A stretch of 64,000 nt of DNA from a virus, in IMG/VR virus record IMGVR_UViG_3300042558_005120, positions 32,001 through 96,000 of that record; one strand, given 5' to 3'. The position numbers and the translations under genes were made by a program. Below are positions 10,491 to 35,413 of this stretch, piece by piece; within the stretch, counting starts at the first letter, position 1; each line of letters opens with the position of its first letter. The notes under the pieces are model-generated. The model saw only the letters and a program-made list of their open reading frames with translations, did no database searches and was not told where the DNA came from.

Positions 10491-10748
10491 TTATGCGCCT
10501 CTTTCAGTATCTCTCATATATCTTTTATGCAGCTTTTCAAATTCTTCAAGTAACTTCATCCCTTCAGCCTCTCCAAAATATAAAACAATACCAACTGCTA
10601 ATGCGTCCCATCCATCTTCATAATTTAACTTACTTTTTCCTGCAGCTGATTGCACAGTAAATACCGTACTTGACCATTGTTTATAGTCGTACTTAATTTT
10701 GTTTGCTTCGTTTAACGAAAAGCTTTCAAATGTTTTAATTCTTTCCAT
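10491..10748 (-). CDS. Hypothetical protein with the shared leader (MERIKTFESFSLNE)
   Basis: N-terminal motif shared with the array genes. Confidence 0.75.
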   Translation of the reverse strand: MERIKTFESFSLNEANKIKYDYKQWSSTVFTVQSAAGKSKLNYEDGWDALAVGIVLYFGEAEGMKLLEEFEKLHKRYMRDTERGA

Positions 10749-12200: not shown

Positions 12201-12209
12201 TATATATCA
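12201..12209 (-). promoter_or_regulatory. Putative late promoter TGATATATA
   Basis: Exact 9-mer found about 17-27 nt upstream of five late-type genes. Confidence 0.6.
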
Positions 12210-20022: not shown

Positions 20023-20631
20023 TTACCTTTGAGCAACATAACCAGACAAGATCTTTGCATCCTCAATCATTTGATCTTTATGAGTCATAACATCAGATTC
20101 TTTTTCTCCAATATGGTGCCCAACAATAAAACCAATTAAATACTTTTCAATTGAATAGATTGGAACAGTAACAAATTGAGTAACGCCCAGCTTTTCTAGC
20201 TCTTTTTTATCTTTGTAATCAATATCTTCAATATCAATAAGAAAGCATTTTTCAGACAGCATTCTTGTTACCCACTGCGGATATTCTGAAGTTAAAACGT
20301 TTTGTTGAAGTCTTTTGAGTTTTTCGTAACCGGGTGCAACAGATTCATAAGTCATTGAAAACTTCTTCATACTTTTGCCATGAAAGAATTTACCACCGTT
20401 ATGAAATTGAAATATTGAGGCCCTGTCAAAATGATAATTTTTTCTAAATGTTTCCAGCCATTCCTGAACTGCAATCATTTCAATAGCATCTACTTCATTA
20501 ATTATCTCATCCTCTTTCTTTTTCTTCTGAGAAATTCTATAGTCTAATTTAGTTTTAACAACAACGGTAATTAATGCTACACAAATAGTACCAACTGTTG
20601 TAATTAGTGTCTGAATAACATCTACGCTCAT
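20023..20631 (-). CDS. Membrane protein with N-terminal TM helix and GAF-like domain (possible T4 t-like holin)
   Basis: Hydrophobic residues 5-25, then FDRASIFQFHNG..KFSMTYE..VPIYS..IGFI, a GAF-like pattern. Confidence 0.5.
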   Translation of the reverse strand: MSVDVIQTLITTVGTICVALITVVVKTKLDYRISQKKKKEDEIINEVDAIEMIAVQEWLETFRKNYHFDRASIFQFHNGGKFFHGKSMKKFSMTYESVAPGYEKLKRLQQNVLTSEYPQWVTRMLSEKCFLIDIEDIDYKDKKELEKLGVTQFVTVPIYSIEKYLIGFIVGHHIGEKESDVMTHKDQMIEDAKILSGYVAQR

Positions 20632-21227
20632 TTCATTTTGCTATTTTTCTTCATCCAACGTTTAACCCATTTTTTGTATTCCTCGTAGGACATAACTCCA
20701 ATTTTATCTTCTTTATTATCAATGTTGTTATCAAACCGGTCACCCGAACCAAGCGTGCCAAGTGTTGGCATTACCACATTACCAACACCGCTTGTATTAT
20801 TCACAGTTGCAGGTGTACCAGGTGGAACTGGAACTGAGGAAACTCCAGATTCTGTTACTTCCTCCTCTTCATCTTCGATAAATTTCATAAATTTTTTCAC
20901 TAATGGATCTTTATTGTCTTTATTTGCGTATGGTAACATTGGCGCTACATTTGATACATAAGAATAAAATTGCGGAAAAGGCCCACCACTTAAAAAACCT
21001 GTTAAATTTTCTTTAACTTTCTTTTTCGGTAAGTCTTTAATTTTTGTTTCAGCAAATCTTTTTAATTCGGCTTTTGACATTGAATCAGCAAGGTCAGAAA
21101 TTTGATCTCGGTATTCGGCGTCTATTTCTTTTGGGTCAGTACCTTCATCCCCGCCACTAAGCTTAAACTTTTTTACTTGATAGGCTTGTGCCATCAATTT
21201 CTGCTGAGATTGTGATACTGCTGGCAT
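20628..21227 (-). CDS. Hypothetical protein with DUF3008-like N-terminus
   Basis: MPAVSQSQQKLM.....SMSKAELKRFAETK...LP.K pattern. Confidence 0.55.
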   Translation of the reverse strand: MPAVSQSQQKLMAQAYQVKKFKLSGGDEGTDPKEIDAEYRDQISDLADSMSKAELKRFAETKIKDLPKKKVKENLTGFLSGGPFPQFYSYVSNVAPMLPYANKDNKDPLVKKFMKFIEDEEEEVTESGVSSVPVPPGTPATVNNTSGVGNVVMPTLGTLGSGDRFDNNIDNKEDKIGVMSYEEYKKWVKRWMKKNSKMK

Positions 21228-21228
21228 A

Positions 21229-21564
21229 TTAACCTAAATCTGTAATTTTGCTATGAACACGCTCACCAAGTTTTGAAAGAGAGTAATGCTTTTCTCCGTT
21301 TTTTTCAACAACATTAAAGTATTGCTCATTTCTTCTCACCCATTGCGGTGATGTTGTTCTTTGTGAGCCTTCGTTCATGCCTTTAATAAATTCGTATAGT
21401 GCAGCCTTTGTTACTGTTTTGTTTTCTTTAACAAAAGATAAAATTCTTTCACGAACAGGCGCATAGTCTGAAACAACTGTTGCTGGATGATTATCTGTGT
21501 ATTTTCTTTTTACGGTTATAAGTGATTCACTTAAGAAAGTTTCGAAATCCATTATAAAACTCAT
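21229..21564 (-). CDS. Hypothetical protein with the shared leader (MSFIMDFETFLSE), possible wHTH
   Basis: Likely start is the ATG at 21564; the track start overlaps the late promoter motif. Confidence 0.7.
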   Translation of the reverse strand: MSFIMDFETFLSESLITVKRKYTDNHPATVVSDYAPVRERILSFVKENKTVTKAALYEFIKGMNEGSQRTTSPQWVRRNEQYFNVVEKNGEKHYSLSKLGERVHSKITDLG

Positions 21565-21581
21565 ATCTTTAATTTTTTTAG

Positions 21582-21590
21582 TATATATCA
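21582..21590 (-). promoter_or_regulatory. Putative late promoter TGATATATA
   Basis: Exact motif copy. Confidence 0.55.
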
Positions 21591-21612
21591 CTTAAGAGTT
21601 AGTGTAATTTTA

Positions 21613-23424
21613 TCAAACATAAAAAACACTGTCGAATCTGGATTTTACTAAATACCAAAACGGGTGCATTTCCTCAGGTGTTAGTTTCTGAAACTCTGTT
21701 TCACTTGTTCCAATTTCAATTACCTCAAGTGCATCTTTGTATAATTTTTTTGAAATTTTCTCAAGTTTCCATTTATATCCTTTTTCGCCCCAGATCGCTT
21801 TGAAATTTTTTGTTTCCATCTCAAATAATTCATAATTATTTACAGAACAATAAATGTGCTCTGGTATAAAATTATCACATTTAGTAATTACTTTCTGAAT
21901 AAGTGGAATGTCTAATATATAATATCCAAGAAAAATTTCATTTCGATTGTTTACAAATCTAGACGCTATTTTCTCAACGTCTTGAGTTTGCATATGAAGA
22001 AAATCATCCTTTACATCGTGGAAAAGAATAATTCTTTTCTTTGTCTGTTTGTGGATATTCTCTAATTGGTCAACTAATTTTTTCGTAATTAAAGAAAGAT
22101 TACATACAACAACAGTTACCGCTTCTTTTTGCTCGTATGACCTTTCGCCGTCGAAAAAGGATTCTAATAAAACAATCGACTTTTCAACTTTACTGTCATC
22201 TGAGCCAGATTCTTTTTTATCTTCTTTCTTTTGACCTTCTTTTTTGTCTTCTTTCTTGTCTTCTTTCTTGTCTTCCTTTTTGTCTTCCTTTTTGTCTTCC
22301 TTTTTGTCTTCCTCATTTAAAATAAAATTAAACTCTAAAAAGGAATAGTCACTTTCAACAAGCCTTGAAATTTCTTCAATTTTTGTATTAAAGTTATTAA
22401 CAATACTTTCACTTAATAGACCGCTTGGGTATTTTGGCTTCTTTAAATTTGCTAGAAATACAGTAAACAAATATTCGTATCTACTATCACTTTCGATAAT
22501 TTGACTTGTTGTTTTGTTTGAAATCCACTGCGAGTTGAAATTTCCACTTTTCTCTAAAAATTTAGGACGCTCCAGACCGGAATCCAAAAAGTCAGGTCCT
22601 TTTGCTTCAACAAAGGAATTAAAAATTTCTGATACGGTTTCCAAATATGCAATATCCGTATCCTTTGTGTCCGATTTAATTTTATTAATGTTAATTGTAT
22701 TGATGTGCTCGCAAATTTCTAAAAGTAAAATATCAAAAAGATGCCCTCTCGATTCCTTTTTACTTTCAATAACTGTATCACTTTCAAGTTTGAAAAGCAA
22801 ATCCTGTTGTTCAAATACAATCGAATCTATTTGCTGTTGGGCTTCATTTAGTAATCCTTTAACTGGGAAAAAGGATTCATTGATTTGCTCAGATTCAGAT
22901 TTTGCAATACTTACTAATTGTTCTATGCTTTCTTCACTGAGTTCACCTTCGAAAAGAGGTTTATTCCATTCGCACCCAAAAATACTTGACCATCTTTCTA
23001 AGACCTTTGAATCTTTGATGTCTCTGGAAATGTCTGAATCTGGTTTTCTGATTGTGATATCCGTTAAGACTAATCCTTTTCTAGGTCGTCTTTCATAACG
23101 TGTGGATAACGGTGCATTGGTTGGAAACCATGAAAACCCGAACCGATGGCGTGGAGGTATTGAGTTTTTAATTTCGGACGGCAAGCTTTGAATATGCGTA
23201 ATAGCCTGTTCATATAAGTCATTAATTGTGCGGTCAATTTTATTGAGCGGAACCTTTCCGTTCTTTCCATAGAAATAAATTTGATAATTATCTTGGTTTT
23301 TTTCAAACGCAAACCGATAAGCATCGAACTTTTCAGTGATGCGGGTTTCTCGTTTCAGAGTCTCACGAAGACCTTTTTCTCCGACTTTTTTGTAGAGTTC
23401 TCTAATATTTTTAATCCCAGCCAT
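21613..23424 (-). CDS. Multidomain protein: degenerate ligase-like N-domain, EDKK repeat linker, degenerate nucleotidyltransferase-like C-domain
   Basis: ITEKFDA resembles ITEKTDG of 32694..33998; C-terminal FQKLTPEEMHPFW resembles FDSMMPPVLHKYY of 30169..30774. Confidence 0.55.
   Translation of the reverse strand: MAGIKNIRELYKKVGEKGLRETLKRETRITEKFDAYRFAFEKNQDNYQIYFYGKNGKVPLNKIDRTINDLYEQAITHIQSLPSEIKNSIPPRHRFGFSWFPTNAPLSTRYERRPRKGLVLTDITIRKPDSDISRDIKDSKVLERWSSIFGCEWNKPLFEGELSEESIEQLVSIAKSESEQINESFFPVKGLLNEAQQQIDSIVFEQQDLLFKLESDTVIESKKESRGHLFDILLLEICEHINTININKIKSDTKDTDIAYLETVSEIFNSFVEAKGPDFLDSGLERPKFLEKSGNFNSQWISNKTTSQIIESDSRYEYLFTVFLANLKKPKYPSGLLSESIVNNFNTKIEEISRLVESDYSFLEFNFILNEEDKKEDKKEDKKEDKKEDKKEDKKEGQKKEDKKESGSDDSKVEKSIVLLESFFDGERSYEQKEAVTVVVCNLSLITKKLVDQLENIHKQTKKRIILFHDVKDDFLHMQTQDVEKIASRFVNNRNEIFLGYYILDIPLIQKVITKCDNFIPEHIYCSVNNYELFEMETKNFKAIWGEKGYKWKLEKISKKLYKDALEVIEIGTSETEFQKLTPEEMHPFWYLVKSRFDSVFYV
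22241..22312 (-). repeat. 12-bp coding tandem repeat (EDKK)x6
   Basis: Units of (t/c)tt(t/c)ttgtcttc on the plus strand; protein EDKKEDKKEDKKEDKKEDKKEDKK. Confidence 0.9.
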
Positions 23425-23449
23425 TTTAATATTTTGTTTAAATTCTAAT

Positions 23450-23458
23450 TATATATCA
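23450..23458 (-). promoter_or_regulatory. Putative late promoter TGATATATA
   Basis: Exact motif copy. Confidence 0.55.
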
Positions 23459-23461
23459 AAG

Positions 23462-23842
23462 TTAAATAAGGTAGCTTTCGGCGAAACCGGATGCGACCAT
23501 TTTTTGGTTGATGTTTACATAGGTAACAGTTTTAATTCCTTCATTTAGTGTTGTAGTTTCCAAATAAATAGTGCCCAGGATCCTTCCGTATTTTTCAGAT
23601 CGATCTTTGATACTTTCTAAAATAATTGATTTTCCCATTATCATTGATGCTAACCAAGATTTTGCTGCTAACCCAGACTTTCGAGTTTCGCCCTTAAGTT
23701 CAGGTGTATTAATTCCGTATAGTCTGATTTTTTGCTTGTGTAGTGTTGTCCAAAAACCAAGATCAATATCAACTGTAATAGTGTCGCCGTCATAGACATC
23801 GGTAACAAATGCTTTGTAAAGATAAAAGTTATTTAGTTCCAT
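23462..23842 (-). CDS. Thermonuclease (SNase-like)
   Basis: VYDGDTI..IRLYGINTPE..EKYGRILG..INQKMVASGFA. Confidence 0.9.
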   Translation of the reverse strand: MELNNFYLYKAFVTDVYDGDTITVDIDLGFWTTLHKQKIRLYGINTPELKGETRKSGLAAKSWLASMIMGKSIILESIKDRSEKYGRILGTIYLETTTLNEGIKTVTYVNINQKMVASGFAESYLI

Positions 23843-23862
23843 GGATAATTTATTTTTTGACT

Positions 23863-23891
23863 AAAAAAAGGTCACAATCAATTGTGACCTT
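23863..23891 (-). terminator. Intrinsic terminator
   Basis: AAGGTCACAAT-ca-ATTGTGACCTT hairpin with a T-run on the minus strand. Confidence 0.75.
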
Positions 23892-23914
23892 AAAAACAAA
23901 GTTTATATGTTTTT

Positions 23915-24088
23915 CTATTTTCCAGCTTTGTCAATAATTGACCAAACGCCGCCGGTTAACGCAATTACTGAACCGCTGATTTCTGCCCATAACGGTTCGT
24001 CTAATAATCCTTTCATAACAAGAATACCGCCAACGAATGTAAGTCCATGACGGACGATTCCTAAAATTTGTTCTTTTGTTAGTTTCAT
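23915..24088 (-). CDS. Small two-TM holin-like protein (57 aa)
   Basis: Missing from the track. Manual translation: MKLTKEQILGIVRHGLTFVGGILVMKGLLDEPLWAEISGSVIALTGGVWSIIDKAGK*. Confidence 0.75.
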   Translation of the reverse strand: MKLTKEQILGIVRHGLTFVGGILVMKGLLDEPLWAEISGSVIALTGGVWSIIDKAGK

Positions 24089-24150
24089 AATAATAGAGTT
24101 TTTTTAAAATCCAAATTTCTTTGAACTGTATCAATTACTTTTCTAAATTT

Positions 24151-24807
24151 TTATTGTGCTATTTTAATATCTGTTGGTTTTATTATACTATCGAAAGTAA
24201 CAACAGACTTCATATCCTCTGGCATCAATGGGTCAACCCACCATGTATATCCCTTAGCGTTAATTTCCAATATAACCGGGTCGGGTATTTTAAAGTAATT
24301 AGTTATTTTTCTTGCTGCTCCAATTGATGTTACGCCAAAAACAGCTGCGTATAATTGCATTGTAACATTTTCACCAGATAATCCTTTACTGAAAGTTGAT
24401 GAGTGTGCCTGTGCCTCAGAAGCAATCAGCCCTTTTTGCATTATATTATCAAGATTTGCTTTTGCTGCAACGTGGAATACTTTTCTTGCTTTTACTGGTT
24501 TTGCAGCAATCATTGTTTTCATTTCGTTATCACTTGAATATCCTCTTAATGTTTTTAAAATAAGAATATTCTTATGCTGTCTACCATATTTTTCAATATC
24601 TGCTAATGTTTGTTTGATTTGTAATTCAGTAGAGGTGTCTATATTTACTAACACTCCGTTATCGAATACTTTAACTTCGGCAAAGCCATTTTTTTTAAAA
24701 ATAGCCGCAACATCTTGTTTGACTGCATTTGGATTGTAATTAGATTCATTGATTGAATCCAATTTAGACTCAAGCAAAAATTCATTAAATGTAAAAATTC
24801 TTTTCAT
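24151..24807 (-). CDS. Leader-bearing protein with ADP-ribosyltransferase-like (Tpt1/DarT-like) C-terminal domain
   Basis: Leader MKRIFTFNEFLLE; VFHVAAKANLDNIMQKGL...PVILEIN...IKPTDI. Confidence 0.55.
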   Translation of the reverse strand: MKRIFTFNEFLLESKLDSINESNYNPNAVKQDVAAIFKKNGFAEVKVFDNGVLVNIDTSTELQIKQTLADIEKYGRQHKNILILKTLRGYSSDNEMKTMIAAKPVKARKVFHVAAKANLDNIMQKGLIASEAQAHSSTFSKGLSGENVTMQLYAAVFGVTSIGAARKITNYFKIPDPVILEINAKGYTWWVDPLMPEDMKSVVTFDSIIKPTDIKIAQ

Positions 24808-24815
24808 AATATTTT

Positions 24816-25253
24816 TTATTTTATTTCAACGTTGCGTTTTGCCTTAGCGGACAAATATTGAGGTATCAGTGTTTTGTAAAGTCTTCTGCGTTTTTCATCA
24901 GTTGCATCAATGATTACAGTTTTGTCATAACCATATGAATCTAAAAATTTTTCTATGATTGTGGTTATGGTTTTAAATAAAGTTCTAACATTACCTTCAC
25001 CGGTCATCTCAAAAGTATCAATCTTATTAAAATCTCCTTTATCAAGTCCAAATGATAGATCAAATTTCCCTTCTTCTGCGCGGTATTCTCCTGAATAAAA
25101 CACCACTTTGTATTGTTGCGTTGGCGAATTAAAAGTATATTCAGCGGTAAGTAATTCATCTTCATCGTCATATTGTTCCTCTTCTTCTCGAAAAGGATAT
25201 GGTTTTTCTAAACTTTCATTTATAAAGTCTTCAAATGTTTGGATGTGTTTCAT
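24816..25253 (-). CDS. Leader-bearing protein, possible divergent GNAT-like fold
   Basis: Leader MKHIQTFEDFINE; TGEGNVRTLFKTI...RRRLYKTLI. Confidence 0.5.
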   Translation of the reverse strand: MKHIQTFEDFINESLEKPYPFREEEEQYDDEDELLTAEYTFNSPTQQYKVVFYSGEYRAEEGKFDLSFGLDKGDFNKIDTFEMTGEGNVRTLFKTITTIIEKFLDSYGYDKTVIIDATDEKRRRLYKTLIPQYLSAKAKRNVEIK

Positions 25254-25271
25254 TTTGTATTACTTAAATTT

Positions 25272-26174
25272 TTATTTACTGATGAATTTTTTGAATTTAT
25301 CTAAAAACTCAATAAAATCTTTATCAAATAAATTTATACTTATTCCAATATCTTTTAATGATTCGATATAGTCAGAGAAATATTTTTTATCATATATCGT
25401 AGATTGTTCCAGAGTTTTAATTCCTATATTTGGGTACATTTTTTTATAACCTATATAAGTTTTGTAGTCATTCTTCTCAACGTATTGTTTCAATTTATCC
25501 AAATTCCTATCAATTATGCCAACATTTTTTTTGTAATCAGAATCTTCTAAATTATCAAATGAATATTCATAAAATAATTTCTCTAAAGTATCGAAAGTTG
25601 TATTCCAATCATATATACTTTTGGCAAGATCATCTCCCTGAAATTTAGTTTTTACATATGGAAGTATTTCACTCTTTTTTAATTCTGAATCCTTAGCCCA
25701 CTTAGGATATTTCTTTTTTAATTTATCAAGTAATTTGGAAATCATTTCCGCAATCATGTCTGGCCAAATTATAGTATTATCTTTATAAAGCCCAACACCT
25801 TCGTCATAAATCTCCTTGAAATCCCTTCCTTTATTTATATGCAAATAAACAGCGCCATACTCATTAGCATCAACATAAAATAGAGAAGTAATGTTTTTTC
25901 TATTTTGTGGGGTATTATCAACATCATAAAATTCAATGATTGAATCAATAATTGAATTTGTAACAACATCTATAATAATGCTGGACTTATTTATTCGAGC
26001 TACGTCAAATCTAATTTGCGTCTCATTCTTACCAATTTTAGTAAGACCTTTTTTATGACCCGTAATTTTGGTTAATGCATCAATTAAATTATTTGATATA
26101 AATGTCTTTGCATCGTAACTATCTAACGATTTCAATTCGTTTAAGAAACTTTCAAATGTTTGAATATATTTCAT
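25272..26174 (-). CDS. Leader-bearing hypothetical protein (300 aa)
   Basis: Leader MKYIQTFESFLNE. Confidence 0.7.
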   Translation of the reverse strand: MKYIQTFESFLNELKSLDSYDAKTFISNNLIDALTKITGHKKGLTKIGKNETQIRFDVARINKSSIIIDVVTNSIIDSIIEFYDVDNTPQNRKNITSLFYVDANEYGAVYLHINKGRDFKEIYDEGVGLYKDNTIIWPDMIAEMISKLLDKLKKKYPKWAKDSELKKSEILPYVKTKFQGDDLAKSIYDWNTTFDTLEKLFYEYSFDNLEDSDYKKNVGIIDRNLDKLKQYVEKNDYKTYIGYKKMYPNIGIKTLEQSTIYDKKYFSDYIESLKDIGISINLFDKDFIEFLDKFKKFISK

Positions 26175-26189
26175 CTGTTTTTTGATATT

Positions 26190-26477
26190 TTATTCACCAT
26201 ACCAAGAATATCCATACTCTTCATATTTGCTATGGACTTCTTTTGGTGTTTTATCTTTATACCATGCAGAACCCAATTTTTGAGAAAGCCCTAATTTCAC
26301 AGCTTCACGTTCAATGGCATCCATTTTTTTAATTTCTGCCATGTTATAGTTAGAGTCCTTTACTTTTTGACCTTGTGCATACATATCATCAAGAAGTTTC
26401 TCTACTTTTTTAGGATCTAATCCCTCGTTTAGTTCTGCTTCATTCAAGAAGCTTTCAAATGTTTTGATGTGTTTCAT
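26190..26477 (-). CDS. Leader-bearing hypothetical protein (95 aa)
   Basis: Leader MKHIKTFESFLNE, followed by a second LNE. Confidence 0.75.
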   Translation of the reverse strand: MKHIKTFESFLNEAELNEGLDPKKVEKLLDDMYAQGQKVKDSNYNMAEIKKMDAIEREAVKLGLSQKLGSAWYKDKTPKEVHSKYEEYGYSWYGE

Positions 26478-26482
26478 AATAA

Positions 26483-26842
26483 TTATTTCTTTAATTTTTT
26501 AGCAAAGTTTATCAAATAATCATTAGCAAAGTCTTCTATTGTTTTTATATAGTCAGGTATTTTTTCAGTTCTAACTTTTATTGCTAATTTTCCCGCCTTT
26601 GTTAGAATTAGAGCAACTTTGCCATCCTCATAACCTAATTTGTAATGACTGACATTTAATGTTTTATAAGTACCGAACTTATCGCCCATAGCTAATCCTA
26701 ACCCAACGTCTGCTTTTGGTAGATTCTGAGCTGGAATTTCGGAAGAAGGTACTGATGTAAGAATATAATTTAATGATTTACCTGTGGCTTCTATAATAGA
26801 TTCTTCATTTAAGAAGCTTTCAAATGTGTGGATATGATTCAT
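26483..26842 (-). CDS. Leader-bearing hypothetical protein (119 aa)
   Basis: Leader MNHIHTFESFLNE. Confidence 0.75.
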   Translation of the reverse strand: MNHIHTFESFLNEESIIEATGKSLNYILTSVPSSEIPAQNLPKADVGLGLAMGDKFGTYKTLNVSHYKLGYEDGKVALILTKAGKLAIKVRTEKIPDYIKTIEDFANDYLINFAKKLKK

Positions 26843-26857
26843 CTGTTTTTTGTTATT

Positions 26858-27085
26858 TTATTCATCTCCGTAAAGTTCGTGATATTTTTTAGTGTGCTTG
26901 GACGTTTTTAGCAGTTTCTTGCCTTTAGTATCACCTGGCATTTCTTTGTATGCTTTGGGGTCATCGTCATCCATATCAGCTTGTTTTGCGATTTGTGCTT
27001 TCTTCTTGGCTGCAGTACTCTTTGAGATTCCCTTAAAGTAGCCGCCTTCTCTTACAAATTCTTCAAAAGATTGTGTATATTTCAT
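26858..27085 (-). CDS. Leader-bearing small basic protein (75 aa)
   Basis: Leader MKYTQSFEEFVRE; DDDDPKAYKEMPGD..SKHTKKY. Confidence 0.7.
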   Translation of the reverse strand: MKYTQSFEEFVREGGYFKGISKSTAAKKKAQIAKQADMDDDDPKAYKEMPGDTKGKKLLKTSKHTKKYHELYGDE

Positions 27086-27534
27086 TTTTCTACTACAAAT
27101 TTTGGCTTGCCCTCTATGGCCTGTGTATATTTCTTACCTGTTTCCTTACTTAAAGCCTTTAAGTAATTGTTTATGTAACTAATAATGTTTTTGGCTCCAA
27201 CCGGATTGTCCGAATGTACTGTTATCTCAGGAAACTCTTCTCCACTAATGACTTTTTCATCACACAAGTCCATGTGATATTCCACCAGCCAGTCTGCTGC
27301 AGATTTACCAGTCTTTTCAGAACCGCCTGTAAAATCATTAAGGTCGTGGTCAAAAGATATTTTGCTAATGTTGTCAAGGCCGTGTTTTTTGACCGCCTTT
27401 ACAAAGTCTGAGTAGGTTCTAACAATAATCCACTTCTTGTCAATAGGAGTTCTCAGGTCATCCAGGTATATCCACACACCGTTAGAATTGCTGGATTCAT
27501 TCAAGAAGCTTTCAAATGTTTTAATGTGTTTCAT
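27082..27534 (-). CDS. Leader-bearing cyclic-phosphate-processing receiver-domain protein
   Basis: Leader MKHIKTFESFLNE; IYLDDLRTP..ISFDHDL..TG..VHSDNPVG. Confidence 0.75.
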   Translation of the reverse strand: MKHIKTFESFLNESSNSNGVWIYLDDLRTPIDKKWIIVRTYSDFVKAVKKHGLDNISKISFDHDLNDFTGGSEKTGKSAADWLVEYHMDLCDEKVISGEEFPEITVHSDNPVGAKNIISYINNYLKALSKETGKKYTQAIEGKPKFVVEK

Positions 27535-27543
27535 TATTATGCT

Positions 27544-27885
27544 TTATTTTTTAGGATTGAATCCAGAATCTCTTGCTTCTTTGGCTAAATCTTTATCTGC
27601 TTTCCCCCATGTTCCTTCACCGCCAGATAAAAAGCTGTTAACTCTGGCGTACGCCCACTGTTCCTGTCCTGCACCTGGACGGTGTCCGCTTTTCCATGCT
27701 GCCATTCCACGGCGAAAAACTGCACGAATTATCCCAATCGGACATCCGGATTCGTCGGCTTTATTCTTTACGCCGGTCTCCAGCTCTTCGCTGCCCAACG
27801 GTCCGCGGTCAGTAGACTTCTGTTCGTTATCATCGGCTTCGTGTAAATAATCCAGCAACCAGCTTTCAAATAATTTTATAAACAT
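27544..27885 (-). CDS. Leader-bearing conserved viral protein (DUF5824-like)
   Basis: Leader MFIKLFESW; VFRRGMAAWKSGHRPGA..QWAYARVNSFL. Confidence 0.6.
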   Translation of the reverse strand: MFIKLFESWLLDYLHEADDNEQKSTDRGPLGSEELETGVKNKADESGCPIGIIRAVFRRGMAAWKSGHRPGAGQEQWAYARVNSFLSGGEGTWGKADKDLAKEARDSGFNPKK

Positions 27886-27886
27886 T

Positions 27887-28798
27887 TTATTTTCTTATTT
27901 TATTAATATCCTCTACAAATACTTTAATTGCCTCTTCTGGGTCAAATATACTGAACTGTGGCGCTTGGTTAACTTCTAAAACATACCATTCACCTGTATC
28001 TTTATTTTGTACTAGATCAACACCAGACGTATAGAAACCCATAGAATCATGAGCACGTTTTGCTATATTCATTTCTTCAAATCCTAATGCTACTCTTTTG
28101 CCCGTTCCGCCTAATGAAATATTATTTCTAAATTCTCCGGCTTCTTGACTTGAGCGCTTAACTGTAAATACGTTTTTGTTTCCAATAAAGAAAACACGGT
28201 AATCACAGTCATTCGGAATAAACTCCTGAATTAACAAAACATCATTTTTTAATTTTCCTGCTACTCGTTTTAATTCGGTTTCATTCTTAACAATTGTAAC
28301 ACCTCTTCCTTGTGAGCCGTGTGCGGGTTTTAAGACAATTGGAAATTCATAGTTAGTAGAAACAAAATCAACATTGCAACTTGAGCCTGTGCAGGTATAT
28401 GTTTTAGGAATATTCACATTATTTTCAGATAGCACTTGTAGCTGTTTATATTTATTGCTAGTATATCTTGGTTGTCCGTAACAAAGAAGTGATATGTCCT
28501 TTTCTTTACAGTATTTTTCTACCAACAGAAAATTTTCATACGCATCTGTATCGGCACCATACGAATTAACCAATCCAATAAATACCAATGAATACTCATC
28601 TAATTTCGTTGTATTGTTGAATAGATGCCCATCAAAAAAGTGTATATTATCCAAACTTGAGAATTCTGAGTCGCTGATGTATTTTTTAGTTAACTTTTCT
28701 ACATTATACATCTTATCTTCCATATCACTACAGTCAAAGGAAAAATCTAAAAATAAAACAGGTTTACGTTTATCTAAAAAATCAAAATATGTAATCAT
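27887..28798 (-). CDS. RimK-like ATP-grasp ligase
   Basis: NK..QL..IPKT, FPIVLKPAHGSQGRGV, IQEFIP..DYRVF, FRNNISLGG, GVDL, VLEVNQAP; likely start is the ATG at 28798. Confidence 0.85.
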   Translation of the reverse strand: MITYFDFLDKRKPVLFLDFSFDCSDMEDKMYNVEKLTKKYISDSEFSSLDNIHFFDGHLFNNTTKLDEYSLVFIGLVNSYGADTDAYENFLLVEKYCKEKDISLLCYGQPRYTSNKYKQLQVLSENNVNIPKTYTCTGSSCNVDFVSTNYEFPIVLKPAHGSQGRGVTIVKNETELKRVAGKLKNDVLLIQEFIPNDCDYRVFFIGNKNVFTVKRSSQEAGEFRNNISLGGTGKRVALGFEEMNIAKRAHDSMGFYTSGVDLVQNKDTGEWYVLEVNQAPQFSIFDPEEAIKVFVEDINKIRK

Positions 28799-28815
28799 AT
28801 GTAAGTAATTATTTT

Positions 28816-28824
28816 TATATATCA
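28816..28824 (-). promoter_or_regulatory. Putative late promoter TGATATATA
   Basis: Exact motif copy. Confidence 0.55.
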
Positions 28825-28825
28825 A

Positions 28826-29350
28826 TTACCAAGGCTCATCGGATGTAAGACCTAATTGCTTATAAAAAAGCGATGGACCATAACACGCCCAGAACCCGGC
28901 CTTGTTTGGATCCATTTTTTTCTGTAAATCACATTGGTGTCTAGACCAAAAATTGGCTGCAGCACCAGGATCGCTATTTTTAATACTTAATCCAGAAGCA
29001 TCGCCCCATTCTATCTTCTTTGCAATTATATTGCCTTTCTCATCCACTTTTCCGCTGTTTCGATATACAACGAATTTTTTGTTTCCACCTCTGCTAGGCG
29101 TATCTAATTCAACTTGGCGGCCATCGTATATTGCCTTTTTTCCAACTTCTAAATTTTTTGCCATCCAGGCGGCTTTGTCATTAAGAATAATATTGCCTTC
29201 GTCCCAGTACTTTTTAGTCTCTTCAAAAAGGCTTTTGTATGCATCACTGCCTAAACGGTAAATGCTATTAGTAACGTCCAACCCATTGTCCATGTGGTAC
29301 TGGAACCCTTCACTAACCTGAAAGTCTTCAAATGTCTTTACGTATTTCAT
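28826..29350 (-). CDS. Leader-bearing conserved phage protein
   Basis: Leader MKYVKTFEDF; KKFVVY..WGD..NFWSRHQC..AGFWAC. Confidence 0.7.
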   Translation of the reverse strand: MKYVKTFEDFQVSEGFQYHMDNGLDVTNSIYRLGSDAYKSLFEETKKYWDEGNIILNDKAAWMAKNLEVGKKAIYDGRQVELDTPSRGGNKKFVVYRNSGKVDEKGNIIAKKIEWGDASGLSIKNSDPGAAANFWSRHQCDLQKKMDPNKAGFWACYGPSLFYKQLGLTSDEPW

Positions 29351-29711
29351 TCTTTAGTGCTTTTTCTATAGTTTTATCAACTCCCCATTCCGGTAAATCT
29401 GTATAGTCATCTTCACTCTTACCTTTTTCAAAACCACTATCTTCAATTTTTACCGCCATTCCTCGATATTTCTTTTCAAAATCTTTAAGTGATTTTTTCC
29501 CGGCACCATCAAAAAACTTTCCGTCGTCTTCTATAAAGTAATGCTGTATTGTAGGACTTGGTTTATATGTTTTGTCAAGAATCCCCCATAGTTGTGACTC
29601 GGGATGTAAGGCTTTGTACGTAGCTGCATATGCCCCACAATAACCATCAACCGTCCAAGCAAGAGTTCCTGAATTGTCTGTAAAACTTTCAAATGTCTTT
29701 ACGTATTTCAT
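29328..29711 (-). CDS. Leader-bearing protein with putative Cys-His-Asp triad (papain/transglutaminase-like)
   Basis: Leader MKYVKTFESF; GYCGAYA...QHYFI...FFDGAG. Confidence 0.55.
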   Translation of the reverse strand: MKYVKTFESFTDNSGTLAWTVDGYCGAYAATYKALHPESQLWGILDKTYKPSPTIQHYFIEDDGKFFDGAGKKSLKDFEKKYRGMAVKIEDSGFEKGKSEDDYTDLPEWGVDKTIEKALKNEIRKDI

Positions 29712-29718
29712 ATATTAT

Positions 29719-29928
29719 TTATTTTTTATATTCTGGAGATTTTACTTTTTTACCTTTGTCGGGACCACCTTCTCTCGGTATCATACCTTGTGCAATCAAT
29801 GAAGTTTTAACACCAAACGGAATATCCTTTCCGCTTTCATAATCCTTTTTATATTTATCAAGTGTTTCTTTTGCGTATGGCGAATCTTTTTCTTGTATAA
29901 AATATTCAAAGGATTTAATGTGTTGCAT
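29719..29928 (-). CDS. Leader-bearing small protein (69 aa)
   Basis: Leader MQHIKSFEYFIQE. Confidence 0.7.
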   Translation of the reverse strand: MQHIKSFEYFIQEKDSPYAKETLDKYKKDYESGKDIPFGVKTSLIAQGMIPREGGPDKGKKVKSPEYKK

Positions 29929-29941
29929 AAAAATAATTTAT

Positions 29942-30166
29942 TTAAAATTTAAGATTGCCACGTTCAACAGAATAGCCTTCCTTTGCTAAAATTGGTTCCA
30001 CTGCTGTTGCGATTGCATTACCTAACTCTGTAAACAATGCCATATCAAAATTAACCAGACCCAATCCAATGACTGCGTTTTTAATATTATACCTTGATAT
30101 AATCCTTTTTTCATTTATATCTTCTGATTCTGAAATCGAGAATTCTTCAAATTTTTTAATTTTCAT
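29942..30166 (-). CDS. Leader-bearing small protein (74 aa)
   Basis: Leader MKIKKFEEFSISE. Confidence 0.7.
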   Translation of the reverse strand: MKIKKFEEFSISESEDINEKRIISRYNIKNAVIGLGLVNFDMALFTELGNAIATAVEPILAKEGYSVERGNLKF

Positions 30167-30168
30167 TT

Positions 30169-30774
30169 TTATAAGTATTTTTTTAATTCATTATAATATT
30201 TATGTAAAACAGGTGGCATCATTGAGTCAAATGTAGATTTATCATCAGCAGAAATTGCATTTCTAACTGCTGTTCCACTTGCGCCATCTTCATCTCTATT
30301 ATTTACTGACTTGACCATGAATTCCTCGGGTATGGAAATTCCATATTTTTCTTGAAACTGTTTAGCTCTCAGGATTTGCTTTTCATAATCAGATAAACGA
30401 TCTGAACCACACGCCATTCCAATGGGCTCGAAGCCGTCTCGCCTAATGAAATCTACCACGTTTGAAACAAAATTAGGATGCTCTCTGTCTGTCTTATAAA
30501 TTATAAAATCAGCAATAAATGATCTATACTCCTTTGCGATATCTTTTCCTATTTTTGCTAAAAGCTGCTCTGGAAAAGGAGACTTACTGTTTTGTGAAAG
30601 TATTTGAACCGGAATAACCTTTGCGCCAAAAACTTCAGACGCTCTTTTGATTGAACCTAAGTGCCCATTGTGAAAAGGTTGAAATCTACCAGGGAAGTAA
30701 ATTATCCTTTCTGAATTTGCTTCATATATTTGCGATTCGGCAAGAAATTCTAAAAATGAGTTAACGTATTTCAT
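30169..30774 (-). CDS. Leader-bearing HIGH-family nucleotidyltransferase (cytidyltransferase/NMNAT-like)
   Basis: Leader MKYVNSFLEFLAE; PGRFQPFHNGH, GSDR, SGTAVR. Confidence 0.85.
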   Translation of the reverse strand: MKYVNSFLEFLAESQIYEANSERIIYFPGRFQPFHNGHLGSIKRASEVFGAKVIPVQILSQNSKSPFPEQLLAKIGKDIAKEYRSFIADFIIYKTDREHPNFVSNVVDFIRRDGFEPIGMACGSDRLSDYEKQILRAKQFQEKYGISIPEEFMVKSVNNRDEDGASGTAVRNAISADDKSTFDSMMPPVLHKYYNELKKYL

Positions 30775-30783
30775 TTGAATTTT

Positions 30784-31698
30784 TTATTTAATATCCCAGT
30801 TTACTGGAGTATAGGCATTGATTTTTGCTAAAACATTATCAGCAATTTGCTCGGCCGCAATTGTTGGTTTGCCTGCTCTTTTTACATAAACGTAAAAAGA
30901 CTCAGTTAGCATTACGGTTTTACCTTTTTTATGTCGAGACACAACTCCAATTTCGGCTGGAATAGTTTGTTGTTTTGTTACCACTTCAGTATCAACTCCG
31001 GCCTGGACAAAAGTAAAGACAATATCGCCATTCATATATCTATTAATTTCTTCACCCATTGTAATAAGTTTTAGCATTGTTGCTGATGCACCTTCGTGGG
31101 TGCCAAATAAAATATTACCCGGAACAACCCGAGAACGACTAAGGTTTTGTTGCTGTGCTACTGAAATATGATTAATAACCCATACAATATGAATGTGGTC
31201 CGGGTCATATCCAAGTTCATTTGCAAATTGAGTAATCTCATTAAGTTTTTTGATGTTCTTTAAAGTAACATCAAAAATTAAATTAGGTTTTCGATCTGGA
31301 GCTGCTGCCAATACTGAAGCATACATTCTTTGCATCTTCTTTTCGTCTACGCCGTATTCATCACCAACCACTGCGTGTAACTGTGCAACATCTTCGGGTG
31401 TTTTGAGATTCATTTTTGTAATGTCTATTCCGGTTTCTGCTTTTGCTTTTGCCGCGAAATTCTTGCTTTTCATTGCGAGTGATTTCAGCTCATCAACATC
31501 AAACACCCAGCCGTCAAGACCAATTAAATTATCTTTAATAAATCCTTTTCCGCTACCAGCACCACCTGCCATAATTACAATATTGCCAAACGGCTGATAA
31601 GGTTTGTTGTTGAAAACTATCAGTTTTTCTAATAGTTCATCTTTTGAATTGGATTCCCTAATAAATTCAGTAAGGGATTTTAAGTACTTTAAACCCAT
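30784..31698 (-). CDS. Leader-bearing P-loop kinase (zeta-toxin/AAA_33-like)
   Basis: Leader MGLKYLKSLTEFIRE; MAGGAGSGKGF, FDVD, LIFDVT, RSRVVP. Confidence 0.75.
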   Translation of the reverse strand: MGLKYLKSLTEFIRESNSKDELLEKLIVFNNKPYQPFGNIVIMAGGAGSGKGFIKDNLIGLDGWVFDVDELKSLAMKSKNFAAKAKAETGIDITKMNLKTPEDVAQLHAVVGDEYGVDEKKMQRMYASVLAAAPDRKPNLIFDVTLKNIKKLNEITQFANELGYDPDHIHIVWVINHISVAQQQNLSRSRVVPGNILFGTHEGASATMLKLITMGEEINRYMNGDIVFTFVQAGVDTEVVTKQQTIPAEIGVVSRHKKGKTVMLTESFYVYVKRAGKPTIAAEQIADNVLAKINAYTPVNWDIK

Positions 31699-31712
31699 TT
31701 TAATAGTTTTTT

Positions 31713-32654
31713 TTATAAAGAAAGAAGCATATCAACAACCTCTTGTTGTGGAAACAAATCAACTTTTCCGGCTTGGACATTTGTATGTAACCATACGCCT
31801 GGGGTTTTATTACATAGTGCAACATCTACTTTGTCAAATGCGCTTATTCCATGTTTCTTGATTTGTTCAACAATACCTTTTCTTGGATCAATACCGTCAC
31901 GGTTAGCAACCCAAAGAATCCAATCCTTTAGGACGGCAATCTGTTTGTCAGAATATCTGTGCCAATGTTTGAATCCTCTAAATGCCTGTGCTAATTCAAC
32001 AATTTGTGATGGATGCGCTTCGGTTCCAACATAAGTATAATACGAATTTGGTTTTAGTGCAGTCCAAATATATTTTTTCTGAGCTGCATCGTATCTTTGA
32101 TATCCACCTTTTGTTAATTGTCCAAAATTACACACCTCAATACCCACACTTTCTCGGTGCATAGCATCGTTGCCCGTACCTAAGTGCCATCCGTATCCAC
32201 CTTGTGGGAACACCTGAATTAGTTCGCCGTCGTGCTTAGTATTATTTCCAAGAATACTTTGTCCGCCTAAAACAAATTCAGTGGCAACAGCACCTCGATT
32301 ATCATAGCCCCAAGTGGAAACCGCGCCGTTTGGATCGTGCCATCCTGCGGTGTGATGTAGAAATATCCAACGTTTATTTACAGGTCCTGGGAAAAATTCG
32401 CCTTTCGGTAAATAATTTTTTGCAAATGTTAAACCTGTGCTTGGTTCAGTAGTTTCGCTAATATCGGTTGTTGCGATTCCCATTGCAGCCCAAGTTTTTG
32501 GACCAACAATCCCATCATCTACTAAACCATTTGCCTTTTGCCATGCTTTAACAGCGGCTTCTGTTTTTGGACCGAAATCACCATCAGCAGAAATCTTTAA
32601 AAACTGCTGAAGCAAAACAACTGATGCTCCAGTTGAACCTTTTTTCAAAATCAT
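31713..32654 (-). CDS. Endolysin: peptidoglycan-binding domain plus N-acetylmuramoyl-L-alanine amidase
   Basis: LKKGSTG..DGDFGPKTEAAVKAWQ..DGIVGPKTW; LHHTAG, WHLG, VGIEVCN, H..K.D. Confidence 0.9.
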   Translation of the reverse strand: MILKKGSTGASVVLLQQFLKISADGDFGPKTEAAVKAWQKANGLVDDGIVGPKTWAAMGIATTDISETTEPSTGLTFAKNYLPKGEFFPGPVNKRWIFLHHTAGWHDPNGAVSTWGYDNRGAVATEFVLGGQSILGNNTKHDGELIQVFPQGGYGWHLGTGNDAMHRESVGIEVCNFGQLTKGGYQRYDAAQKKYIWTALKPNSYYTYVGTEAHPSQIVELAQAFRGFKHWHRYSDKQIAVLKDWILWVANRDGIDPRKGIVEQIKKHGISAFDKVDVALCNKTPGVWLHTNVQAGKVDLFPQQEVVDMLLSL

Positions 32655-32693
32655 ATTTTAAAAGTAATTATTTTTCGAAGTATATAATTATTT

Positions 32694-33998
32694 TTATTTA
32701 CTATATACGAGCATTCCTCTGAGTTGGTTAATGGGTGCAAATATCCCAGTATATTTATACTGCTTTCCTTTCCATACAAATGTAATACCTTCACTTGGTA
32801 CAATTGAATCCAAACCGCCAACAGCAGCAATTCTTTCCAATTCTCTATTTAGTTTTTCGATTTTTACAGTATCATTACTTGCTTGGATTTGTTTAATTGC
32901 ATTTTCAATTTCTTGGCGCATTGTTAAAGTTGCCTCGGTTGGATTTGCTGCTAAGAACGTATTGATATTTTTTAAAAACGTTGTTCCTACTTCTAAAAAC
33001 AAATATTCAACGGGTTTGATAATTTCCTTTTTTAATTTTGCCCCTTCTGTTTTTTCTAATTCGATATACCAATCTGCTGCGGTACCAAGATCTTTTTTGA
33101 TGTTTGGTACTTTATAACTTTTGTCATCGAAATAAAGTCTTTTAACTAAAAGGTCAACAAAATCCGGTAAAATTGTATGCCCAGCATCTTTAATCATTTT
33201 GCTGAGTTGCATTTTACCCATTGCTGCAACATAGTCGCCAAGAGTTGAATCCCATTTTATTCCGGCATTCTGAACAAGTTCATTTATTTTTCCAATAAAT
33301 TTTTTCTCTAACTCACCAGCATTTGGTAATGGAATTGACTCTATATTTTTAGGGCCACGGACATAGAATGTTGATTGGACATCTGCGTTTGCGGCTTTAA
33401 TAAGATTCCCTAATATATTTCCGGCTTCTTTGTCATTATCAATTGGCTCTCCAGCTTGATTGTAAGTTAGTATACCATGAAAAACTAACATATCCTGTCC
33501 ATAAGGAATTACGTTTTGTGTTCTGGGCGTAATTACTTCAACTGAACCAAATTTTTCTCCATTATTAAATAATAGAATTTTGTCTTCATCTCTTAGTTTG
33601 CTAATTGCGCCCGAAAGATCTTCCATTGCTGTTCTAAACGCAACTTCAATTTCACCTCGACCTTTAAACATTTCGACTATACCATTGATGTCTAAAGCTT
33701 TTTCTCCAAAATTTTTCAAATGCCCTTTATTTCTCGCTCCAATCAACTCCCCATCCTTCCAAGAGAACATTAAATTTTGCCCATCTGTTTTTTCCGTAAT
33801 AAAATTTTCTGGAGTAAAAAGACCATGGACGGTTGCAAGTATCATTTCCTTGAAATCTTCCATGGTCAATTCCATATCCTCAAAAGGATGATTGAGGTGC
33901 CCGTAGGCACCTCCTTCATTAAGTACGGATTCAAATATCCAAGAAGTATTGAATTGTAACTTCTCGTTAAGAAATTGTGTATATGATAGTAATGCCAT
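32694..33998 (-). CDS. Leader-bearing protein with RNA-ligase-like KxDG motif (DUF6267-like)
   Basis: Leader MALLSYTQFLNE; GHLNHPFED, TEKTDG, ARNK, EGITF..YKYTG.F. Confidence 0.6.
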   Translation of the reverse strand: MALLSYTQFLNEKLQFNTSWIFESVLNEGGAYGHLNHPFEDMELTMEDFKEMILATVHGLFTPENFITEKTDGQNLMFSWKDGELIGARNKGHLKNFGEKALDINGIVEMFKGRGEIEVAFRTAMEDLSGAISKLRDEDKILLFNNGEKFGSVEVITPRTQNVIPYGQDMLVFHGILTYNQAGEPIDNDKEAGNILGNLIKAANADVQSTFYVRGPKNIESIPLPNAGELEKKFIGKINELVQNAGIKWDSTLGDYVAAMGKMQLSKMIKDAGHTILPDFVDLLVKRLYFDDKSYKVPNIKKDLGTAADWYIELEKTEGAKLKKEIIKPVEYLFLEVGTTFLKNINTFLAANPTEATLTMRQEIENAIKQIQASNDTVKIEKLNRELERIAAVGGLDSIVPSEGITFVWKGKQYKYTGIFAPINQLRGMLVYSK

Positions 33999-34004
33999 TA
34001 TTTA

Positions 34005-35015
34005 TTATCCTTTATTTAACCTACCAATTGCAGAACCCCAATCGCCTGATTTCTCAGCATCCTTTGCAAGGCCGTCAATTACTTTATTAGCAATTTCTTC
34101 ATCGAAATTATCCGGGTGTTGTTTCTTTAGGATTTTCATTGCATATTCACGGAAATCTTCTTTGTTTTCGATTGTTCCTTTGCCTGCACGGTCCTGAGCT
34201 TTTTTCGCATCTTTGATAGCACCCTTTGATTCAGCTTCAGCATCCTTTGCCTTTTGTTCAGCATCTTTTGCCGCAGTTTCCGCCTTTTTGACTTTTGATT
34301 CTAATTCTTTAGTTTCGTCTTTAATCATTTTTTTGATGTCTGCTTTGTTGATTTCAGCTTCGCTAACTTCGTTTTGGAAAACTGGGTAAACCTTTCCGTT
34401 AAATTCGAATTCATCTAATCCTTCTTCGATTGCTTTTGCTCTTGCAGCCATCCAAGCGTTACCTTCGTTTAAAACAGTAAACTTAGTTCTATATTTTAGA
34501 AACGACATTATTTCACCGTATGATGTAGATTCTGGGTGTGAAGGTTTTCCAGTAGAATCTATGGTTCCTTTTTTCGTGTCAACGGTAATTGTAAAGCTTC
34601 CAGATTTAGGTTTAATCGTTAAGATATCCCCGGTCACATTAACAGCCATATATTTACCTTTCAAAAATGTAGCAAAATGACTTTGATTTTTATTTAAAAA
34701 GTCTTTAAGTTCATCAGGATGAGTCATTAAAATTTCTTCATTTAGATATAAATTATAATTGAAATTTCCTTCGGAGACACCAAATTCTTTTACATCCTTT
34801 TTACCGGACTCGCTTGCACCTTGGCCTTTCTCCCAGTCTTTGGTAATTTCGCTAAAGAATTCTGATTTTTTGTCAGCTGACAAATCAGCAGGAGATTCAA
34901 CTCCATATTTTTTCAGTTTTGCAGAAAAGTATTCTTGATAGCTTTGTTGCAATTTTGATAGTTCACGCTTTTCAGCTTCGCGGACAGCATCTGCCCATTC
35001 TGAGATTTTTTTCAT
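34005..35015 (-). CDS. Charged helical hypothetical protein, probable head-internal/scaffold-like
   Basis: Several internal LNE/QNE sites and an A/K/E-rich coiled coil. Confidence 0.55.
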   Translation of the reverse strand: MKKISEWADAVREAEKRELSKLQQSYQEYFSAKLKKYGVESPADLSADKKSEFFSEITKDWEKGQGASESGKKDVKEFGVSEGNFNYNLYLNEEILMTHPDELKDFLNKNQSHFATFLKGKYMAVNVTGDILTIKPKSGSFTITVDTKKGTIDSTGKPSHPESTSYGEIMSFLKYRTKFTVLNEGNAWMAARAKAIEEGLDEFEFNGKVYPVFQNEVSEAEINKADIKKMIKDETKELESKVKKAETAAKDAEQKAKDAEAESKGAIKDAKKAQDRAGKGTIENKEDFREYAMKILKKQHPDNFDEEIANKVIDGLAKDAEKSGDWGSAIGRLNKG

Positions 35016-35035
35016 TTTTTATTGATTTTTATTTT

Positions 35036-35413
35036 TTACATTTTCATACCATATTGGTTAAATCCGCCAAAATGGCCATTTACCATATCACTAACTTTTT
35101 TATTAACGGCTTTTACTTTACGTTCAGATGCTTTTGCGAGACGTTCAATAATATCACTGTCAATTCGCATTCTTTTGTCCAAACAGTAAACAATAGTAGA
35201 AACGCATTTGTTAACAGTATCAATTTTATCGTCCCCCATTCCTTTCATAAACTCATCGTATAGACTTCTTCTAAGCGGCTCAAGGGTTTCATCGGAAAAG
35301 TTAACTGAAACTTTAATATCTGAGATGTTATCTGTCTTCATAATACTTCCGGCGTTTGTTAATCCTTTTTTGCCTTCAATTAGAAAATCAGTATATGTCA
35401 TAATCCATCTCAT
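35036..35413 (-). CDS. Leader-bearing hypothetical protein (125 aa)
   Basis: Leader MRWIMTYTDFLIE. Confidence 0.7.
   Translation of the reverse strand: MRWIMTYTDFLIEGKKGLTNAGSIMKTDNISDIKVSVNFSDETLEPLRRSLYDEFMKGMGDDKIDTVNKCVSTIVYCLDKRMRIDSDIIERLAKASERKVKAVNKKVSDMVNGHFGGFNQYGMKM

Follow-up and report, generated by a model that had tools for sequence, protein, structure and literature searches.

In phage T4, the internal proteins IPI, IPII and IPIII and the protein Alt carry a capsid targeting sequence that is removed by the prohead protease gp21 (Mullaney and Black 1996, reviewed in PMC9026906 and PMC3012670), an enzyme that cuts after the motif L/I-x-E (PMC9026906). Mutagenesis of the T4 tag, MKTYQEFIAE, showed that targeting depends on residues 4 and 7 and processing on residues 8 and 10 (PMC9026906), and the principle that unrelated internal proteins of T-even phages share a common targeting sequence has already been described (PMC3012670, PMC9026906). 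In the giant phages phiKZ, 201phi2-1 and SPN3US, a gp21-related protease cleaves dozens of head proteins behind a Glu residue, and many of these proteins are ejected into the host (PMC5694885). Here we analyze a 64,000-nt stretch of viral DNA (hereafter the window; bases 32001-96000 of the 109,206-bp virus contig IMGVR_UViG_3300042558_005120) in which an earlier note had described an array of otherwise unrelated genes opening with one short N-terminal leader, and had proposed that this leader is an equivalent of the T4 tag. Literature searches yielded the T4 and phiKZ/SPN3US precedents, but neither this tag nor arrays of tagged genes in huge phages turned up as described before; the novelty lies in the scale and the enzyme cargo and not in the mechanism.

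A shared N-terminal leader on unrelated genes

Between 19 and 24 open reading frames (ORFs) on the contig, about 18 of them inside the window and all on the minus strand, open with a 13-residue leader that starts at Met1 and reads M-K-H-I-K-T-F-E-S-F-L-N-E or a variant thereof. An iterated, position-specific matrix scanned against all called genes of the contig returned 20 N-terminal matches scoring 21 to 38 bits, and the best match not located directly after a Met scored 15 bits. The leader alignment (13 columns, consensus MKHIKTFExFLNE) has invariant F7 and E13, M1 and F10 in at least 90% of its rows, and Leu, Ile or Val in column 11. Converted to a hidden Markov model (HMM), a scan that the earlier note had suggested, this alignment matched the contig at 19 places with E<6e-4. 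In the 35,205 residues of the contig's proteins, the loose pattern [FYW]..[FYWH][LIVM].E is found 26 times, and 20 of these occurrences fall within the first 25 residues, where shuffled proteins yield a mean of 0.7 and a maximum of 3. Genes with the N-terminal motif make up 20 of the 110 genes on the contig (18%). The note's central observation, one leader on many ORFs, is borne out by matrix, HMM and pattern alike.

All nine leaders quoted in the note are present on the minus strand at the start codons it gave. The window holds 12 strong leaders and about seven weaker or variant ones (Table 1), and a further six or seven leaders form a second cluster directly past the window end (window-equivalent positions 64978-69324, locus L001). 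The array that had been placed at 20628-35413 is real, although the lower end of that range (20628-23842) contains a single weak leader. A gene-by-gene scan of the contig found no leader on the UvsW-type helicase, DNA polymerase, topoisomerase, amidase/lysin, sheath, tube, portal or tail-fibre genes, in agreement with the claim that replication, lysis and tail genes lack it. Across all leaders, the terminal Glu is missing in a few variants (starts 29711 and 28798), and no hydrophobic signal-peptide stretch is present in the leader.

Correspondence with the T4 targeting sequence

Counted back from the final Glu, residues 4, 7, 8 and 10 of the T4 tag become P7, P4, P3 and P1, and these determinant positions are exactly the conserved columns of the leader, which has an aromatic residue at P7, Phe at P4, Leu, Ile or Val at P3 and Glu at P1. 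As on the T4 internal proteins, the leader is a tag of 10-19 residues at the extreme N-terminus, with aromatics at P7 and P4, Leu or Ile at P3 and Glu at P1, carried by unrelated bodies in a phage with a T4-type head. In the T4 record, ipII and ipIII start with MKTYQEFIAE followed by A, ipI starts with MKTFKEFTSTTTPVSTITE followed by A, the 65-residue propeptide of gp23 ends in F-G-S-F-L-T-E followed by A-E, and gp24 starts with MAKINELLRE; the leader analyzed here ends in F-E-S-F-L-N-E, followed in one gene by A-E. The likeness extends to gene order, with tagged genes adjoining a lysin gene as ipII and ipIII adjoin gene e.

Several features set the two systems apart. The tag described here, so far known from its sequence, comprises 13 residues (MK-HIK-TFESFLNE) as opposed to the 10 of T4, and its cargo includes enzymes of 200-470 residues, whereas the T4 cargo consists mainly of small basic proteins. 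At least 20-24 genes are tagged on the 109-kb fragment, compared with N-terminal motifs in four of 279 T4 genes (1.4%), two of them ipII and ipIII. The gp21-family protease, known here from relatives, is fused to the scaffold in those genomes, unlike in T4. The variable internal-protein loci of T-even phages (PMC3012670, PMC9026906) similarly combine a conserved tag with a changing set of cargoes, but they hold one to three cargo genes per locus where the arrays described here hold tens. Phages phiKZ, 201phi2-1 and SPN3US are likewise large phages with many processed head proteins, but their propeptides are mostly longer than 100 residues and end in a Ser/Ala-x-Glu motif (PMC5694885), with no uniform short tag reported; a 13-residue tag with Leu, Ile or Val at P3 does not conform to that type.

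Selection on the peptide and modular attachment of the tag

Substitutions within the leader preserve residue class (Phe/Tyr, Leu/Ile/Val, Glu). At columns carrying the same residue, 70% of leader pairs use the same codon, against 57% expected from codon usage, and in the related contig G002 the corresponding figures are 65% and 63%. The DNA upstream of the leaders is unconserved, being only generically A-rich, and the conserved DNA, upstream region included, that would characterize a mobile promoter or regulatory cassette was not found. With synonymous codons varying and no conservation upstream, it is the peptide that is under selection. A recent duplication of the leader DNA was considered as the main explanation and rejected, the excess of codon identity being small here and absent in G002.

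No similarity could be detected between the tagged bodies, which upholds the statement that they are unrelated, and no paralogy was detected among them. Where families can be assigned they differ (HTH_38 with a weak AAA match, DUF6934, cREC_REC, DUF5824, a cytidylyltransferase-like fold and a Zeta-type kinase), and the Pfam domains of tagged proteins begin at residues 22-26. In AlphaFold models, residues 1-22 of the kinase form a low-confidence short helix and linker outside the confident fold, and residues 1-33 of a 434-residue protein form a similar low-confidence helix and linker ahead of that protein's own confident fold. Homologues of the cREC_REC protein in relatives begin directly at the domain, with no tag, and about half of the tagged bodies lack a homologue in two related contigs. 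The tag is a module separable from its unrelated cargo.

Two of the cargo modules, a DUF5824-like module A and a Lys-rich module B, are arranged as tag-A-B in G002 and as tag-B-A in the related contig G001. In the window (26858-27885) they are separate tagged genes, with the tagged cREC_REC gene between them. The arrangement of modules A and B is a clear case of shuffling at tag boundaries.

Head-assembly genes and scaffold repeats in relatives

The contig, about 38% complete according to CheckV, carries almost all of its genes on the minus strand. Its morphogenesis genes are of T4 type, with homologues of gp2 (DNA end protector), gp4 (head closure), gp55 (late sigma factor), gp15 (tail sheath stabiliser; a weak match), gp18, gp19 and gp20 (sheath, tube and portal); a UvsW-type helicase, a family B polymerase and a topoisomerase are also encoded. 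The portal protein is closest to that of LR756500.1, a huge uncultured phage of 462 kb (48% identity), and is about 35% identical to the portals of 630-735-kb phages and Lak phages and 29% identical to those of the cultured jumbo phages PAU and PTm1. A DNA-level similarity search against cultured phages returned three trivial matches only. The source of the window is a huge uncultured T4-type phage.

The prohead protease, which the earlier note had suggested locating, is absent from the contig itself and present, as a Peptidase_S77 domain, in four of the five tag-bearing related contigs, within a 577-residue open frame (a 576-residue ORF in G001), as well as in LR756500.1. The arrangement gp55, gp4, gp2, portal, protease-scaffold fusion and capsid protein is common to G001 and LR756500.1, and their two capsid proteins start with MYANHLINE and MIKLINE, respectively, each followed by A-E. 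Behind the portal gene of the contig analyzed here, upstream of the window (L003:689-3312), come a 104-residue ORF, a 2OG-Fe(II) oxygenase, a DUF4326 protein and a clamp loader. The head module must be located in another, unassembled part of the genome.

The scaffold of G001 contains nine tandem 14-residue repeats of the form Y-x-x-[Y/H]-[L/I/V]-x-E and one F-M-N-F-L-S-E, giving ten matches to the loose pattern, and every other protein of three contigs has at most one internal match. When a reduced-alphabet matrix derived only from the leaders of this contig was used, the G001 scaffold ranked first at the 99.9th percentile, with four of the 38 matches, and second at the 99.5th percentile, behind a protein nearly twice as long.

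Distribution of the tag and of cargo homologues

The tag is at least as frequent in G002 (126 kb) as here, with 27-30 tagged genes and the N-terminal motif in 30 of 150 genes (20%); G001 has 9-11 tagged genes, and LR756500.1 carries the variant MKYIKEYEEFILE. The leader HMM produced no real matches in PTm1, PAU, Lak-A1 or Flavobacterium phage immuto. PTm1, a cultured jumbo phage of Tenacibaculum, shares the order of the portal, protease-scaffold fusion and capsid genes and has a Bacteroidota host, but the tag system is absent from it: the HMM gave zero matches, the N-terminal motif occurs in four of its 343 genes (1.2%), a pattern scan of its N-termini found no tag of its own, and its scaffold repeats are different.

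Among the best 120 homologues of the kinase body, 78 open with a tag-like motif, mostly in the 10-residue T4 style (e.g., MKRFTNFLQE and MLTFEKFMAE). In marine as well as enterobacterial T4-like phages, T4-style tags are thus found on homologues of this one cargo. The results suggest that the tag known from T4 is ancient and widely distributed among T4-type heads and does not belong to T-even phages alone.

The kinase homologue of the cultured Straboviridae phage KP15, of Klebsiella (L057:5004-5843, KP15_200), is annotated as hypothetical and starts with MKSFKQFTESTLTE and then A, closely resembling the IPI tag of T4; that of RB43 (L058:5001-5834), also annotated as hypothetical, starts with MKSFKDFVSLDE followed by A, a less clear IPI-like match. 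Both may be unrecognized head-packaged proteins of cultured T4-like phages; the KP15/KP27 paper reports no virion proteome. In the T4 record itself (NC_000866, 18966-19130, minus strand; L072), a 54-residue ORF outside the known internal-protein genes starts with MKTFKEFIKE, a perfect tag-like sequence.

A late-promoter-like motif and the timing of the array

The motif T-GATATATA-(C/A)-TAAA occurs 16 times on the coding strand and not once on the other, mostly 26-51 nt ahead of genes for structural proteins (sheath, tube, neck and tail-fibre-type). Sites in the window are at 12208, 21589, 23457, 28823, 35458 and 51583, with more on the contig outside it. The motif precedes the tagged genes starting at 12173, 35413, 21564 and 28798, heads the unit that holds the second leader cluster, itself located between tail-type genes, and is kept at orthologous tagged genes in G002. 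Because the contig encodes a gp55-like late sigma factor, the motif is probably the late promoter of this phage group. Between 20 and 37.5 kb, the minus strand has no strong terminator other than the terminator-like hairpin behind the last array gene (Table 1), and the positions of motif and hairpin would fit late expression of the array. A 603-residue protein with no family match, encoded behind one of these motifs at 21613-23424, contains about eight K-E-D-K repeats in a run.

Proposed function of the leader and alternative explanations

The earlier proposal of a T4-equivalent tag is partly supported. All computational tests that were run agree with the comparison to T4, and we consider it fairly likely that the leader is a head-loading tag of the T4 type, removed by a protease and employed at about ten times the density seen in T4. 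By analogy with T4, we infer scaffold binding, cleavage after L-N-E, presence in the virion and injection. The short, amphipathic N-terminal tag would bind the scaffolding core of the assembling prohead, and the protein behind it would become enclosed in the head. Cleavage behind the last Glu of F-L-N-E by a prohead protease of the T4 gp21 family, specific for Leu/Ile-x-Glu, would next release the mature protein, which would remain inside the filled head and probably pass into the host cell together with the DNA. Some two dozen unrelated proteins, several of them enzymes, are probably packed into the virion in this manner.

A number of observations weigh against this interpretation. Loading 20% of the gene products would be unusually heavy, and the main array lies between the UvsW-type helicase and a nuclease, among replication-type genes and outside the head module. 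Some leaders lack the final Glu or contain insertions (starts 29711, 10748 and 29350). The incomplete contig has no Peptidase_S77, protease-scaffold or capsid gene, and protease, scaffold and capsid are extrapolated from relatives with a median protein identity of only 39-49%. No virion proteome was found in the literature for any phage with the tag, and the promoter motif is a consensus without validation. Regarding the scaffold, a strict matrix built from its repeats gives no enrichment of N-termini, and the loose pattern was broadened (His at P4) after the scaffold had been seen; the likeness between tag and scaffold is therefore suggestive, and at the level of residue class only.

The tag might instead work inside the infected cell, as a helix for docking or assembly or as a protease-activation propeptide, and the tagged proteins would then not be a delivered payload. 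They might bind a shared hub through the tag, or remain inactive as enzymes until cut, or pass into the prohead core and there share the scaffold's fate of degradation and expulsion. The location of the array among early or replication-type genes is in keeping with such a role, as are cargo enzymes useful inside the cell (the ATP-grasp enzyme, the nucleotidyltransferase and the kinase), and the T4 core proteins gp67 and gp68 are likewise cut and then lost (PMC5694885). We nonetheless judge an intracellular role unlikely, given that the tag matches the T4 positions deciding targeting in addition to those deciding processing, that several tagged genes are preceded by late-promoter-like motifs, and that the second cluster sits between tail-type genes. 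Least probable of all is a shared start maintained at the DNA or RNA level, as a recombination hotspot or translation-initiation enhancer with the peptide as a by-product. The slight excess of codon identity in this contig and the shuffling of body modules at leader boundaries speak for such a cassette, whereas the near-randomization of synonymous sites (complete in G002), the conservation of residue class and not of bases, the unconserved upstream DNA and the recurrence of the peptide pattern in LR756500.1, a phage with a portal only 48% identical, speak against it. It is also very improbable that the tag addresses proteins to another destination, such as a phage-built compartment, a membrane or a degradation system timing early proteins: the hydrophobic stretch of a signal peptide is missing, and the match to the T4 tag and the gp23 cleavage site, as well as the repetition of the same motif in the protease-scaffold protein, would be left unexplained.

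A more specific form of the head-loading reading, which we put forward tentatively and regard as doubtful, is that the tag mimics one 14-residue scaffold repeat. Each scaffold molecule would present a series of docking sites, the cuts that dismantle the scaffold would also set free the cargo co-assembled with it, and huge Bacteroidota-type phages would ship an exchangeable, fast-evolving enzyme kit ahead of gene expression. This kit would comprise the RNA-ligase-like enzyme, the P-loop kinase, the nucleotidyltransferase, the cREC-domain protein and the DNA-binding ATPases, and it might serve RNA repair or counter-defence.

If the tag works as in T4, the virion payload of the clade could be read from sequence, with two dozen proteins here and 27-30 on a related fragment. 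The enzymes listed above could act in the first seconds of infection and are therefore candidates for injected counter-defence or takeover functions. The tag would also represent a natural, short, high-capacity protein-loading signal, comparable with the T4 tag already used for protein delivery.

Genes of the array and its flanks

The leader-bearing genes of the window, the leaderless genes embedded in the array and the hairpin that follows it are listed in Table 1.

Table 1. Tagged genes and associated features of the window. Genes on the minus strand start at the higher coordinate; leader class distinguishes strong leaders from weaker or variant ones.
Position	Strand	Product	Leader class	Leader or protein start	Remarks
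10491..10748	-	85 residues; no Pfam family	strong	MERIKTFESFSLNE	one-residue insertion before N-E
10770..12173	-	467 residues; HTH_38 (over cut-off) and weak AAA_16	variant	MGLRYLKDYDSFINE	GATATATA late-promoter-like motif 35 nt upstream
21229..21564	-		weak	MSFIMDFETFLSE	likely true start ATG 21564, 25 nt past late-promoter-like motif at 21589; leader and motif also present in G002 orthologue
23868..23891	-	intrinsic-terminator-like hairpin			10-bp stem and T run, directly after last array gene
24151..24807	-	218 residues	strong	MKRIFTFNEFLLE	last array gene
24816..25253	-	DUF6934 (from residue 25)	strong	MKHIQTFEDFINE	
25272..26174	-	300-residue body without known family	strong	MKYIQTFESFLNE	
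26190..26477	-	95 residues	strong	MKHIKTFESFLNE	
26483..26842	-	119 residues	strong	MNHIHTFESFLNE	
26858..27085	-	75 residues; module B	strong	MKYTQSFEEFVRE	relatives fuse module B to DUF5824 module
27082..27534	-	cREC_REC (from residue 22)	strong	MKHIKTFESFLNE	leaderless homologues in relatives
27544..27885	-	DUF5824 (module A)	degenerate	MFIKLFESWLLDYLHE	
27887..28798	-	RimK-type ATP-grasp enzyme	place in leader set uncertain	MITYFDFLDK	likely start (ATG 28798), leader-like without final Glu; late-promoter-like motif at 28823
28826..29350	-	174 residues	strong	MKYVKTFEDFQVSE	
29328..29711	-	127 residues	strong	MKYVKTFESF, then TDN	terminal Glu missing
29719..29928	-	69 residues	strong	MQHIKSFEYFIQE	
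29942..30166	-	74 residues	weak	MKIKKFEEFSISE	
30169..30774	-	cytidylyltransferase-like nucleotidyltransferase (domain from residue 26)	strong	MKYVNSFLEFLAE	
30784..31698	-	Zeta-toxin-type P-loop kinase (phrog_5268)	variant	MGLKYLKSLTEFIRE	
31713..32654	-	PG_binding_1 and Amidase_2 lysin	leaderless		inside array
32694..33998	-	RNA-ligase-like body, 434 residues	variant	MALLSYTQFLNE	then linker and V-L-N-E directly before conserved GGAYGH domain
34005..35015	-	Ala/Lys/Glu-rich, 336 residues	clear leader missing	MKKISEWADAVRE	inside array
35036..35413	-	125 residues	variant	MRWIMTYTDFLIE	first array gene; late-promoter-like motifs at 35458 and 35425; G002 orthologue retains leader and motif

Sequence searches with the 434-residue protein returned no Pfam, PHROG or PDB match. 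A fold search with its body gave weak but consistent matches to RNA ligases (T4 Rnl1, archaeal ligases and the adenylyltransferase domain of Trl1), and the family has an invariant K-x-D-G. Of 119 homologues, 117 have [LIVM]-x-E immediately ahead of the conserved GGAYGH domain, at a distance of 14-46 residues from the protein start. This motif may belong to the domain fold or mark a second site of cleavage.

The family B DNA polymerase match spans only a 466-residue ORF (18475-19875) that includes the exonuclease domain but only the beginning of the polymerase domain, and the gene may be split or interrupted. Directly past the window end, on the minus strand (L001:1328-3280), a 650-residue ORF opens with the leader variant MKHVKLFEQYIVE and contains a second, perfect in-frame leader, MKHIQDFESFLNE, at residue 541, preceded by the A-rich DNA typical of leader starts. 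This ORF may represent two genes fused through a lost stop codon, or a small polyprotein with an internal cut site.

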